Assembly (NCBI GenBank): GCA_943788175.1
Contig: CALSPG010000001.1
Coordinates: 320,001-384,000 of the forward strand
Source of the DNA: an uncultured bacterium
GTDB taxonomy: Bacteria > Fidelibacterota > Marinisomatia > Marinisomatales > UBA1611
DNA: 64,000 nt
Direction of reading: 5' to 3'
Shown: piece by piece, positions 11,045 to 63,400 of the stretch
How the letters are laid out: each line of letters opens with the position of its first letter
Numbering within the stretch: the stretch's first letter is position 1
The notes under the pieces: generated by a model
The model's database searches: none
What the model was told of the DNA's origin: nothing
Seen by the model: only the letters and a program-made list of their open reading frames with translations
Program-made: the position numbers and the translations under genes

Positions 11045-12076
11045 CTAATAAGATATTAATAATGAGCCCAAACCGTTTGTTGCCTCCCAAAAGTTATATA
11101 AACTAGTACCATCATCTTCTAATTTCGAAAACCATTCAGCCGTTTCATCAACCTTTAGCCAATCATCCTCTGAAAGTGAATTATCTGTAATAACAATAGC
11201 TAGAAGATTGAATTTTTTTTGAGACTCAGCATAAGTAGGAAATCGTTGTCCTAGACGTTCAATTAATGTTTCTGAAGTAAAAGTAGTTTTTTGATGTGCT
11301 GTAAAATCAAATGTTGTCTCATTTATCGATAAAGCAGTTATATCAGTAAACATATCAAAATTATTCAAATCTTGAATATCTAACATACCCATTAGATATA
11401 ACTCTAATTCATTATAAGGCACACCATTCCCTCCATTAGCAAAGGGCCCAAAACTATCTACTGTATAAGAATTATTTCCATTGTCTAAGAGAGAGGATTG
11501 TTGAAATCCGCCAAGTTGTCCAGGTGTACTACCTCCTGTGAATCCCCAATGACCTGTATATAAGTAAGAGCTTAGTTCTTCTCCCTGTGAATCAACTGAG
11601 TGTGTGGGTAATGCATAGTTTGCCCAATTATGAGCTAATTCATGCAATGCTGGGCCGTATTTTAGATATTCCAAGCCGGTTAATTGCATTACCGCTTTTA
11701 ATTTTCCATTTGAGCCATAATCTAGAGAATTATCATAGATCTGAAATCCTAAACCTGAAATGCTATTAGATACACCAATAAGTTTGCCATAATAATTTAA
11801 ATTTTCAGGGATAGACGGCTCATCAAGTATTAAAAAAATAAAATCATAACTATCAGGGAAAACCTCATAAATATCGTTTATGACTTTTAGCCTTTCTTCA
11901 GTATTTGTAAAGCCATCGTTTCCAACCCATGATTCATATTCGCCGGAACTCATTTTTAAAGATGCTACACGATTATTTTCATGATATGTATATTTAAAAA
12001 TTGTATCAGTGTTGGACTGTTTATCTTCACAACTATAAAAACAGAAAAGTACGAACACTATAGTATATTTTTTCAC
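11045..12076 (-). CDS. Lipoprotein zinc metallopeptidase (HExxH)
   Basis: Lipobox FYSC; HELAHNW, later GHWG and ELYLMG. Confidence 0.7.
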   Translation of the reverse strand: MKKYTIVFVLFCFYSCEDKQSNTDTIFKYTYHENNRVASLKMSSGEYESWVGNDGFTNTEERLKVINDIYEVFPDSYDFIFLILDEPSIPENLNYYGKLIGVSNSISGLGFQIYDNSLDYGSNGKLKAVMQLTGLEYLKYGPALHELAHNWANYALPTHSVDSQGEELSSYLYTGHWGFTGGSTPGQLGGFQQSSLLDNGNNSYTVDSFGPFANGGNGVPYNELELYLMGMLDIQDLNNFDMFTDITALSINETTFDFTAHQKTTFTSETLIERLGQRFPTYAESQKKFNLLAIVITDNSLSEDDWLKVDETAEWFSKLEDDGTSLYNFWEATNGLGSLLISY

Positions 12077-13227: not shown

Positions 13228-13728
13228 CTAATTAGATTTCTTAGGTCCGATATATATTTTTTTTACAAGTGAAACAGGCAGAAAAAACAAAACTTCAAAC
13301 ATAAAATTCAATCTACACGTTTTACTATCAATTATTTCAATTGGGCTTATACTAAAACCTTTACCATCTTTTGTGTTTTTTGGGCTTACTACAAATTTCA
13401 TTGGGCCAATGGTGCGTAATAGATTCCTTATAGTTTTATAGCCTTTTATTTTTTCGTTTGGCATCAAATTATTATCTTCATTGCTCCTGTTAATGATATC
13501 AATAAGTAGAATAACTTTCTCTTTAAATATGACCTTTTCCCACTTAACAGTGCCTTTTTCATAACTAAAACTAGCATCTTTCGACATTAGTGGGTTCGGA
13601 TGAGATTTCCGTAAAGATTCAATTAGTGATAAAAAATGATTTTTCCCGCCAAATAATTTTGCATGATCAGTAATCTGATTTTTCAATTCTAGCTTTTTAT
13701 CAATATCTAGCGAGTCATAATTATTCAT
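13228..13728 (-). CDS. Hypothetical protein
   Basis: 166-aa ORF, co-oriented with neighbours; no motif recognised. Confidence 0.6.
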   Translation of the reverse strand: MNNYDSLDIDKKLELKNQITDHAKLFGGKNHFLSLIESLRKSHPNPLMSKDASFSYEKGTVKWEKVIFKEKVILLIDIINRSNEDNNLMPNEKIKGYKTIRNLLRTIGPMKFVVSPKNTKDGKGFSISPIEIIDSKTCRLNFMFEVLFFLPVSLVKKIYIGPKKSN

Positions 13729-13768: not shown

Positions 13769-14614
13769 TTATTTTAACATAACCATCTTACGAGTTTGTA
13801 TCATATCTTCAACATATAATGTATATAAATACATACCAGCAGCTACTCTTACATTTTTATCATTTTTTCCGTTCCATATAATCGTTTTATATCCTTCAGA
13901 TTGAAAACGATTTAAAAGAGTCCTGATTTTATTACCGTCAATATCAAAAATAGAAATATTAACAAAACTATTCTTTGATAAGTCATATGCTATGTTAGTT
14001 GTAGGGTTAAAAGGGTTTGGATAATTATTACGTAATGTAAATAATTCAGGTTTCAATTTATTTTCAATCGATAGTGATGTGTTTTTAATTTCTAATATTA
14101 TATTTTTGATATACTGGACATCTTCAAAGCTTGCTGGGTTATAAGGGGTCATGCTAAAAGAAGTATCAATAAATCCTTCATTATTGATAAAGAAAACATC
14201 TCTTTGGTTAGCTCCATATTCCGACCAAACAGGATAATTATCTAAACTATCATCTTGAACCCATGGCAGAATTCGCCCATTTAACATTCCATCTAGAGAA
14301 CTGGAATACTGATCCTTACCAATACCAATAAATTTGACATCTAGTATGTTTTCAGATAGAAGTTCTAGATATAAATCATTTAAAAGCTCGAACCGAGCCC
14401 TGCAGGTACCTCAGTATTCGTGAAAAAAGCCAAGTACTAAAACGTTGTCTGTAAAATATGACGGCCCAATTAATTCGCCAAAGGTATCAGAATCAGGATT
14501 TATATCTTCCAAAGTAAAATCGTTCTGACTAAAGAGATTTGCAGAAAATATAATTAAATAAAAAGAAATTATATATGTTCTTAAAACGTTATGAGCAGAT
14601 AACATGATTTTCAA
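13769..14614 (-). CDS. Putative selenoprotein: secreted thioredoxin/AhpC-fold protein (UxxC) with FlgD/T9SS-like C-terminal sorting domain
   Basis: ORFs 14411-14614 and 13769-14287 are in frame. They are joined by one TGA (14411-14413) and 41 stop-free codons: ...DFTLEDINPDS...LVLGFFHEY-U-GTCRARFELLNDLYLEL...VKFIGIG...ILPWVQD...NNYPNPFNP...TRKMVMLK. The start may be the ATG at 14605. Confidence 0.85.
14383..14401 (-). promoter_or_regulatory. Candidate bacterial SECIS hairpin
   Basis: AGGGCUCG-GUU-CGAGCUUU stem-loop 3' of the UGA. The G-initiated apical loop is about 16-17 nt downstream, and the hairpin is GC-rich in an AT-rich gene. Confidence 0.7.
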
Positions 14615-60422: not shown

Positions 60423-63400
60423 TTATTTCAAAAGAACCATTTTTTTCATTTGATTATACGTCCCAGCGCGAATAGTATAAATGTACATTCCTGCACCAAC
60501 CGGTAATCCCTTATCATTGGTTGCATTCCATACGGTTGTATGATATCCAGCTGAGATATTGCCCTGGATTAATGTTCTTACTTTCCTTCCCATCATATCA
60601 TAAACGCTAATTGTCACCATCGACTGCTCAGGGATTGCATAGCGTATCTGCGTGCTAGGGTTAAATGGATTGGGATAATTCTGTTCCAATGCAAACACAG
60701 TAGGTACAGTCACCTGTTCAGATGATGAGAGAACTGCTGCTGCGATATCGGAAGCATCGCTCTCATTACCAGCACTATCAACCGCTGTAATCCAGTATTC
60801 ATATAATCCTTGAGTACCTTCATGGTCAACATAAAAAGAGTCTGTTGTGGTAAAGACCATCGCAAGATCAGCACTGTTAAGATCGTTTTTGTAAATATTA
60901 TGATAACTAAAATCCTCATCTACCTGCGTGTTCCATTGTAATACAACGCTAGAACCGCTCTCAAGCGCAGTTAATCCTTGAGGCACTGTTGGGTGTAGAT
61001 TGTCAACAGAAAAGCCTGTCACAGGTTCAGAGACATGGTATAGTGCTACATCTTCAGTATGAGCTGTTACTCTAAACGTACTATGGTGAACGCCATGAGT
61101 AGTAGAGTCTCCAAGTGTTGGAACGACAAGACTGTACTCATCCTCCGTACCAATCCAAGGTACTGTCGCAATAAAATCCCAGAGATCTGATGTGTCAGCT
61201 TGGAACTCTACTGGAGAATGGTACCAAGAAAAACCACCTCCGCTATTATTACCAAAGTAGCTTGTAAAAGTAACATCATAGTATTCATCACTATCTATTA
61301 GATAAAGAGAAAATACCGGAGTACCGGCAAGTTGCTGGACTAGTGTTTGATTTACATTATATCCCGATTGCAATATCGCAGCATTTAATGACGTATATGC
61401 TAGATCTGAATGGCTTTCATCTAAAGTAGCGCCCCATCTCCAACTTGTTCCAGATGGTCCATTCGGATCGTAACTATCTTGTGAGAAAATATTAAAGATG
61501 CCCTGATTACTAGCCCTAGTTAGCCAGACCGTTTCTGAAATACGGTCTTGATTTTCTTCTAAAGTCCAGTCTGCGTTATTCTCTTTGGTAAAATATACAA
61601 TGTCTGGTTCTGGATTTACTTTTCTCCATGCAGAAAACTGAGTAAATAGTAATGATGGATCTACCTGACCAGGCTTCCATACGATTTGCATCTGCTTACC
61701 CTGGTCATTTGCTACGTCTCTTAAACTTAATATCTCCGGACGGTGGTCTGCGATATAAACTGTAAACTGCTCACTTACAACATACTCACTATCCGATACA
61801 CTCAAGGTAAATACATACTCCCCATCTTGCTCTGGCTGACCTACGATCTTCGATCCATCTAATGATATCCACGAAGGTGTTCCTTCAAGGGTAAAAAAGA
61901 TATCAGAGTCTATATCATCTGCATAGATCCAGTGCTCTAGTCCTGATGTAATGTCCCCCATAGCGTGGAAATGATCCATCGTAAAAAATGGAGCATCATT
62001 CACAGCAATGACATCAATAGTAAACTCCTCTACATCAGACGCTCTGCTCATATTATCATTAGCAACAACAACGATCTCTGCTGTTCCATTCCAATCAGCA
62101 TCTGGAGTGATATAAAGAAGTGTATCGTCTACAAAAGCAGATACTCTGTCCTGGGAGCTATAGGCATAAACACTTAGTTCAGCATTATCAATGTCACTAG
62201 CAAATACGGCAAGAACCAGTGTCGAGTCTTCAGACATCGATGTATCTGCAAAAGCAGATAACACCGGAGCATCATTCATCGGCTCTACAAAAAGATGTAT
62301 CATCGCAGTATCAGATAGAAAATCAGCTGCGCCATCAGTGGTGCCATTATCTGTTACAGAAAATAGAAAACTATCTGCACCAAAAAAGTTCACATCAGGC
62401 GTGTAAGTAAACTCTCCGGAGGTATCAATTACGCTTAGAGTGCCGTTCGACGTGCTTAAAGTAATACTATAGCTTAAATCTTGCATCTCTTGCTGTGTAG
62501 GGGAATAATCTCCGTCTTCAGCATGTAGTTCTCCATGAAGCGTATCATCCTCTGCTATCATAAAATGATCACCTATTGCTACTGGTTTATCATTCACTTC
62601 GGTCACTTCTATGGTAACCATAGCGGGTTCACTGTAGGCTTCACCATCATAGGCTACATACTTAAACGAGTCTAAACCAAAAAAATTATTGTAAGGGGAA
62701 TATGTAACGGTAGAATCTGTTATGAAAACGACCTCCCCATGAAATGGACCATCTAAGATCGTATAGCTGATAGTGTCATTATCAGCGTCCTGTGAAATAA
62801 GATCAATATTTACTGGCACATCCTCAACGGATGAAGATGAAAATGAATTTGCCACTGGAGGTTGATTTTGATTTGACTCACCCCCCGCTAACCAGTAAAC
62901 CATCTGCTCTAATAACTGATCCTCCACGCCGGAACGCATGCCGCTAGTAACATAACTAGTGCTAGCAATGTACAAACCACCTAAATATCCGGTCCTACCA
63001 TTACTGCCATGATCATGAACGATTATAGGATAAGCATCATCAATATTATTAAAACCACCTAGCTTTTCGGCACCTGGATCAATAGATGTTGCATATTCAG
63101 TATAATTGCAGGTTGGAGTAAAATTTGAGATACCATTGGTCACTGGATGGTCATTTTGAACTATAGAAATTTGCCCTGGTTGTTGATATTGGTAACCCGG
63201 ATTCTGCGCGTAAGGAGTAATCGCGGCTAGATCAGCATTGCCAGTATAATATGATTGTGTCTCATAAATAAACCAGCTTAAAATGAGTATACCGCCACCA
63301 TTTTGTAAATATGTATTCAAGTTAGGATAAAAATTAGATGACCATGTAGTATATCCTCCATCTCCATGTCCTGAACCACCAATAATTATAACATCATAAT

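Follow-up and report, generated by a model that had tools for sequence, protein, structure and literature searches.

A predicted exported selenocysteine thiol-disulfide enzyme with a type IX sorting tail in an uncultured marine Marinisomatales bacterium

The window analysed here is a stretch of 64,000 nucleotides from an uncultured bacterium of the order Marinisomatales (lineage UBA1611; assembly GCA_943788175.1, contig CALSPG010000001.1, positions 320,001 to 384,000). On its minus strand, two open reading frame (ORF) fragments called under translation table 11, 14614..14411 (67 residues) and 14287..13769 (172 residues), lie in one frame interrupted by a single TGA at 14411-14413. An inspection of the letters alone (the original prediction) had read them as one hidden selenoprotein of about 281 residues, and the shared frame, the single TGA and the length all hold: readthrough gives 278 residues from ATG 14605 or 281 from TTG 14614. 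With U for selenocysteine, the product runs ...DFTLEDINPDSD...VLVLGFFHEY-U-GTC-RARFELLNDL...VKFIGIGKD...ILPWVQDD in its first and middle parts and ends ...NYPNPFNP...TRKMVMLK*. Every motif previously picked out is found in it (DFTLED, FFHEY-U-GTC-RARF, VKFIGIGKD, ILPWVQD, NYPNPFNP and the terminal KMVMLK). The locus is very probably one intact gene, encoding an exported selenocysteine thiol-disulfide enzyme with a type IX secretion system (T9SS) sorting tail. Its parts are as follows.

13769..14605, minus strand: whole putative selenoprotein gene, from ATG 14605-14603 to stop TAA 13771-13769, 278 codons; alternative in-frame TTG at 14614
14525..14605, minus strand: predicted Sec-type signal peptide, residues 1-27, MLSAHNVLRT-YIISFYLIIFSANLF-SQ
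14090..14524, minus strand: thioredoxin-fold redoxin domain with predicted U-G-T-C active site (NF053656, AlphaFold2 model, Foldseek)
14411..14413, minus strand: predicted UGA selenocysteine codon, residue 65 counted from the ATG
14383..14401, minus strand: hairpin resembling a selenocysteine insertion sequence (SECIS), core GGGCUCG-GUU-CGAGCUU, from an alignment of 31 loci
14024..14089, minus strand: linker between redoxin domain and sorting domain, no family match, low-confidence model
13781..14023, minus strand: predicted T9SS type A C-terminal sorting domain, NYPNPFNP...GMYLY...TRKMVMLK

The start at ATG 14605 is common to a 278-residue public prediction and to the ortholog from the same genus (L046), which has identical start and stop positions and is 94% identical. 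Over the full frame, the ratio of non-synonymous to synonymous substitution rates (dN/dS) against this ortholog is 0.138 (31 synonymous and 19 non-synonymous differences). Only three differences fall upstream of the TGA.

The TGA is a family trait. All 31 loci fetched from related genomes carry it in one alignment column, in the context F-F-G-H-E-Y-U-x-x-C-R-x-R-F-G-x-L-N. A search of 61 related genomes with the NF053656 profile gives matches in 38, and exactly one in-frame TGA lies in each of the 29 matches that exceed the cut-off. Across all 54 rows of that search, 48 have one TGA, one has two, one has a TAG and a TAA, and four have none; of these four, two cover only stretches before or after the site and two are weak, at 33.5 and 22.1 bits. 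Of 301 genomes sampled evenly across the phylum, 63 contain the family, and the 100 matches listed comprise 86 with one TGA, 13 with two and one with none. Conservation of the TGA in the same context, as judged from these alignments, is far above chance. Independent assemblies, checked for TGG, TGC or TGT at the codon, show TGA as the relatives do. In two DNA runs of separate studies (2014 and 2024; the runs compared may include the source of the window itself) the contigs have no other letter across the stretch, and contigs of two RNA-library runs from a third study are identical across the TGA. The runs containing the stretch are labelled marine metagenome.

A nonsense mutation or assembly error would leave a pseudogene or two unrelated small genes, and table 11 does split the frame. 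Splitting by standard gene callers had been foreseen, and 51 of 71 close public predictions are indeed C-terminal fragments called separately. This explanation is nonetheless close to untenable, as (i) the TGA occupies the same column in loci from different genera; (ii) the dN/dS is low over the whole frame; (iii) both the curated domain model and the confident fold of a single domain extend across the TGA; (iv) the contigs of three studies are identical. Most of the fragment calls, including every one on longer contigs, begin at the first start codon past the TGA.

The selenocysteine genes sought in the genome are present. The tRNA-Sec scores 57.3 bits (cut-off 47) and has the anticodon tca according to ARAGORN; selA (467 bits), the adjoining selB (316 bits) and selD (396 bits) are all over their cut-offs. 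The selD gene (contig C7:396580-397506, minus strand) itself holds one in-frame TGA and so probably encodes a selenoprotein too.

Homologues with a sense codon at the site would be expected to carry Cys, and they do. A profile built from 30 domain sequences gave 1490 matches among 1.84 billion representatives, and the best 150 of these, realigned to the profile, yielded 156 stretches. The U column holds CxxC in 62 of them, WxxC in 25, gaps in 60 and degenerate forms in nine; the gaps are fragments beginning after the TGA. Among the Cys forms, those with a named source are from Phycisphaeraceae and Myxococcota assemblies.

The 25 stretches with W, together with W at the codon in 20 of the 71 close public predictions (none of which bears a selenoprotein name), raise the question of whether the codon is read as Trp or another standard residue through reassignment of TGA, or whether the family truly has Trp. 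The provenance of these entries argues otherwise. All 20 lie on contigs of at most 3039 bases, whereas fragment entries occur on contigs of up to 507 kb. One cluster at 90% identity mixes 259-residue members having W59 with 58-residue members ending exactly before W59. In 54 genomes with the family, DNA matches spanning the site all carry TGA, never TGG (with query P0008, TGA in 62 of 64 rows, the other two covering later residues only). Metagenome gene callers may choose code 4 on short contigs. The short contigs, the mixed cluster and the genomic TGA together indicate that the public 'Trp' is a TGA read under this Trp-reading table. Under table 11, the window has 40 ORFs of at least 200 residues that cover 75.6% of it, five of them ending in TGA, so the genome is not recoded. 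Together with the full selenocysteine machinery and the Cys of the sense-codon homologues, this leaves a Trp reading hardly any weight. On the agreement of machinery, Cys pairing, W test and non-recoded genome, TGA-65 is a selenocysteine codon, as the sequences are best read. Full-length W calls on contigs of up to about 3 kb are a systematic annotation artefact and usable as a flag for hidden selenoproteins.

Downstream of the codon lies a hairpin. In the alignment of the 31 loci the TGA occupies columns 7-9 and the hairpin columns 19-37 (window 14401-14383). RNAalifold, unaided, finds five stem pairs, with double-sided changes in every one. With the helix taken as eight pairs, 84.7% of cells are paired, a share that drops to 28.6-58.5% on sliding the partner. 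Changes on both sides occur in 26 cells, against 6.3 in shuffles, and none of 500 shuffles reaches the observed score. A core of 22 nucleotides forms a hairpin at the same place in all 31 sequences. Since only 14 of them form the outermost pair (columns 19/37), the well-supported stem starts 10 nucleotides after the UGA. The E. coli fdhF element, with a spacing of about 11 nucleotides and G-U in its loop, resembles the hairpin described here.

The RNA structure leaves a mark on the protein. The apex GGUU is invariant in the 31 loci and is encoded by CGG-UUC. Both codons are rare in the long ORFs of the window, where CGG accounts for 16 of 525 Arg codons and TTC for 138 of 829 Phe codons; at the hairpin, 25 of the 31 loci have CGG and 26 have TTC. 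Changes in the stem alter residues in step, giving AGC..GGC (S..G), AAU..GAU (N..D) or, in the window, GCU..GAG (A..E). Cys forms mostly read C-R-x-Q-F and selenocysteine forms C-R-x-R-F. The hairpin would thus constrain the protein: in the selenocysteine forms of the clade an Arg (CGG) stands at the position that is Gln in most Cys forms, and flanking residues change along with the compensatory substitutions in the stem. From the covariation, the hairpin is a SECIS-like element conserved as structure, and the locus offers a clean example of a readthrough hairpin shaping protein sequence.

One same-class relative (L072; genome G247, contig C43, minus strand) has a Cys form, H-C-G-T-C-Q-V-R-F, and is the only TGA-free match among the 100 listed from the phylum sample. 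Its protein is longer, with the redoxin domain as the C-terminal part. Its DNA past the Cys codon reads CGG-TTT-GG, perhaps a relic of the hairpin; it folds differently and, as a single sequence, is not informative.

The domain that spans the TGA belongs to a curated family. With hmmscan, residues 31-175 match NF053656 (redoxin_TUGYCR) at 115.5 bits (cut-off 100) over model positions 2-145 of 146, and a six-frame search of the genome returns the match at 109.4 bits, flagged '1 TGA'. The original prediction had called the architecture unrecognised; for the family this does not stand, as NCBIfam already names the domain a 'TUGYCR motif thioredoxin fold (seleno)protein'. The active site U/C-G-x-C-R is common to both. 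Relative to the name-giving T-U/C-G-Y-C-R, the local Y-U-G-T-C-R keeps U, G, C and R and lacks T and Y, and relatives vary likewise. Cys forms read ...T-C-x-Y-C-R-x-Q-F, whereas the selenocysteine forms of the clade read ...Y-U-G-T-C-R-x-R-F.

The AlphaFold2 model of the domain is confident (predicted local distance difference test, pLDDT, 91.6; predicted template modelling score, pTM, 0.88). In the numbering of the model, U41 sits between a strand (31-36) and a helix (42-60), which bears out the earlier placement of UxxC at a strand end and helix start. Foldseek ranks highest ResA, a DsbE, other thiol-disulfide oxidoreductases, DsbF and CcmG, with template modelling (TM) scores of 0.70-0.74. 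Comparison of the profile with the Protein Data Bank (PDB) finds ResA at E 1.4e-5 and places U opposite the first Cys of the ResA CxxC. All 30 sequences compared keep the Pro of L-P-W, which aligns to the Pro of F-P-V in ResA and is taken as that of the cis-Pro loop. The domain would therefore be a ResA/TlpA/DsbE-like thiol-disulfide oxidoreductase with selenocysteine as its attacking residue, the site being of UxxC and not TxxU type and the closest matches being ResA/DsbE-like. The fold and the position of U are seen in the model; the chemistry, the redox direction and the substrate are predictions.

The ResA role is in cytochrome c maturation, and nothing at the locus ties the gene to that pathway. 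The likeness to ResA, TlpA, DsbE (CcmG) and DsbF extends to the fold, the extracytoplasmic site and the alignment of U with the first Cys. The differences are selenocysteine in place of Cys, an identity of 17-20%, and a cleavable leader with a C-terminal sorting tail in place of a membrane anchor.

Selenocysteine is a good peroxide-reactive residue. A selenium-dependent peroxidase that removes surface peroxides, and not a protein disulfide reductase or isomerase, would account for the weak AhpC/TSA matches (16.7-24.9 bits), for the label 'peroxiredoxin family protein' that one Cys homologue bears at its source, and for the peroxiredoxins and a glutathione peroxidase at lower ranks of the fold list. 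The leading matches in both sequence and fold are, however, oxidoreductases (ResA, DsbE, CcmG, DsbF), and the peroxidatic motif PxxxTxxC/U is absent from the sequence, which has GFFHEY-U-GTC instead. The tables of PMC2398784 and PMC13188914 assign TxxU to selenocysteine peroxiredoxins and UxxC to the thiol:disulfide type, and here UxxC stands at the CxxC position. We consider a peroxidase unlikely, though it deserves a hearing, and prefer the thiol-disulfide oxidoreductase.

The two ends of the protein are consistent with export. Within residues 1-27 a hydrophobic core follows a basic residue, with an 11-residue hydropathy peak of 2.1-2.4 at residues 10-12, and relatives have a comparable hydrophobic leader that ends right before a conserved Q-x-DF-x-LED. 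The N-terminal signal peptide previously proposed is in this way supported as a prediction. The full-length model has a helix at 4-24 in the leader and six strands at 203-276, and gives the order leader helix, thioredoxin fold, disordered linker (residues 177-201, most of the linker, at pLDDT below 50) and six-strand domain. The 81 residues at the C-terminal end score 32.8 bits with TIGR04183 (cut-off 23) and 27.4 bits with PF13860 (FlgD_ig; cut-off 27). The genome encodes PorU (583.6 bits, cut-off 420) and SprA (586.9 bits, cut-off 200). Besides PorU itself and the tail of the gene, 49 other places in it match the PorU model at its sorting-domain end; such a number suggests that a system for sorting this kind of tail is at work. 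Secretion by the type IX route is what we infer, on good grounds, from the domains and genes present.

Two observations concern this system. At least 50 ORFs of the genome end in the same kind of sorting domain, among them a 1319-residue ORF at the far end of the window (60450-60815, minus strand; C1:380450-380815). The SprA match (contig C7:328244-334275, plus strand) consists of several pieces in separate open frames, and a short piece at 328662-329009 holds a TGA; a frameshift, a fault in the assembly or a further readthrough could account for this pattern.

We propose that UGA-65 is decoded as selenocysteine during translation, the cis and trans parts for insertion both being present. The hairpin 10 nucleotides downstream, with its invariant GGUU apex, would recruit SelB carrying Sec-tRNA(Sec). 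The leader would send the protein to the periplasm by way of the Sec translocon, and the thioredoxin-fold domain is expected to fold there. The type A sorting domain would then hand the protein to the type IX translocon SprA, and PorU would either release it or fix it on the cell surface, as domain and gene content suggest. In the enzyme, selenocysteine would replace the exposed attacking first Cys of CxxC and cycle through a selenylsulfide with Cys-68.

Several results weigh against this proposal. The lone 77-nucleotide stretch after the TGA folds no better than shuffles (z 0.08); since the fold of a single sequence is not usable, the hairpin draws its support from comparison across loci. Between 13700 and 14700, matches to Rfam at E up to 10 are no better than chance and include no SECIS family. 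The contigs of the RNA libraries cover the gene and, as contigs, cannot prove transcription or its level. Pfam Thioredoxin_8, AhpC-TSA and Redoxin score 18.9, 16.7 and 13.3 bits, under cut-offs of 23.5-27, so the likeness to these families is one of fold and distant sequence. The full-length model is weak (pLDDT 64.6, pTM 0.52) and serves for the order of the parts only. The tail scores 26.4 bits with PF18962, 0.6 under the gathering score of 27. The PorV-like match in the genome reaches 131 bits against a cut-off of 250 and GldK 42.9 against 350, and GldL and GldM have no match in this genome, which is 92% complete, with models tuned to Bacteroidota. Control genomes gave no match to GldL or GldM either, so these misses are weak and do not show absence. 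Lastly, we know of no electron donor for an enzyme outside the outer membrane.

The points on secretion bear on where the protein ends up. It could be a real selenoprotein that is periplasmic or simply released, its tail being an Ig-like module (PF13860 is just over its cut-off, PF18962 just under) and not a working type IX signal. The faint or missing Gld and PorV components would fit. So would the natural reductant of such a domain, of DsbD/CcdA type, which works in the periplasm; a carrier of this type is found in the genome at 71.8 bits. Three relatives (L021, L022 and L032) are redoxin-only, Pfam finding no tail on L021, and their hydrophobic leaders have a Cys close to the end, which hints at lipoprotein signals. 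Set against this are TIGR04183 over its cut-off, PorU and SprA well over theirs, and a tail that the ortholog, the paralog and the longer relatives all retain. A periplasmic or merely released enzyme is accordingly the less favoured account and an improbable one. The surface sorting first proposed keeps the support of the TIGR04183 tail, PorU and SprA and lacks that of PorV, GldK, GldL and GldM, so it stays a prediction; sorting by the type IX system is the destination we prefer.

The genome has a second copy of the family on another contig (C8:48131-48895; L020:1435-2214, plus strand). It encodes 259 residues with a leader, F-T-U-G-T-C and a tail of the same type, and it matches NF053656 at 88.3 bits, below the cut-off of 100, with one TGA. 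The commonest form among relatives is a redoxin module followed by a right-handed beta-helix and the tail, about 510 residues in all. In others the module precedes a lamin-tail domain and the tail, leucine-rich repeats, or nothing. Cousins of the same class (L069:455-1114, L070, L071:415-1098 and L073, from genomes G303, G330, G083 and G216) have two selenocysteine codons in a motif U-x-G-U, which is UAGU or, in L073, UGGU. These cousins end in dockerin type I (PF00404, 34 bits against 22.9) and not in the sorting tail. Because it precedes such varied passenger domains, the N-terminal UxxC module acts like a redox head that can be moved between exported proteins; in this genome the redox module itself is the only passenger.

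Selenoproteins are costly to make, and a selenoenzyme with a surface-sorting tail is unusual. Selenocysteine modules placed before beta-helix, lamin-tail and leucine-rich-repeat domains and, in the UxxU cousins, dockerin, point to extracellular redox chemistry as common in the lineage. If the protein does reach the surface, the module could open or reshuffle disulfides in outside substrates, for example dissolved proteins, or in its own Cys-rich passengers, and type IX secretion would be a route for spending selenium outside the cell. The furthest extension, in which working selenoenzymes sit on or are shed from the surface of abundant uncultured marine bacteria, with the UxxC/UxxU module as a portable extracellular redox head that acts without the usual periplasmic electron supply, we hold tentatively, as possible rather than probable. 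As the 71 close predictions are made up of 51 fragments and 20 'Trp' calls, marine selenoproteome counts and secretome lists for the lineage both fall short.

To our knowledge, no selenoprotein has been described as type IX cargo. The protein resembles type A cargo of that system in its leader and TIGR04183 domain, and in the PorU, SprA and many sibling cargos of its genome; it differs in being a selenoenzyme and in that no match to the motor genes GldL and GldM turned up with Bacteroidota-tuned models. Etrx lipoproteins have a repair role. Etrx of Streptococcus pneumoniae (PDB 4hqz, 2yp6), which appears in both the sequence and the fold lists, is likewise a thioredoxin-family protein outside the cell, and differs in having Cys and not selenocysteine, a lipid anchor and not a sorting tail, and a Gram-positive envelope.

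In the literature searched, no paper contains the word TUGYCR, selenoprotein with type IX secretion returns one unrelated paper, and selenocysteine with Por_Secre_tail returns none. The ocean-sampling survey PMC2398784 describes, in its searched passages, marine Prx-like and Trx-like UxxC families, UxxU variants and domain fusions. In its corresponding parts the 2026 review PMC13188914 lists a 'Prx-like thiol:disulfide oxidoreductase, UxxC/UxxU'. The family described here shares with the marine families of those passages of PMC2398784 the marine origin, a thioredoxin-like fold, weak similarity to PF00578 and UxxU variants. It may be among them, although no mapping to one named group in these passages was achieved. 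The candidate 'Prx-like 2' of PMC2398784, defined by similarity to PF04592, was set aside, there being no PF04592 match at E up to 10. A 2022 preprint, in the passages searched, treats other selenoprotein families and has no bearing on the one described here. The searched passages of PMC2398784 and PMC13188914 make no mention of the sorting tail, and those of the latter (May 2026) contain no occurrence of 'NF0536', 'secret' or 'signal peptide'. The protein is a new member of a curated family, and its architecture of leader and sorting tail is undescribed in the literature as far as searched.

The gene neighbours in the window give no functional link to the selenoprotein gene. Upstream lies a major facilitator superfamily transporter, with FolD and PheST further upstream. 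Directly downstream, an ORF of 166 residues (13228-13728, minus strand) has no Pfam family at E 0.001 and is followed by an endonuclease/exonuclease/phosphatase protein. Beyond that phosphatase gene, an ORF of 343 residues (11045-12076, minus strand) likewise has no Pfam family at E 0.001.

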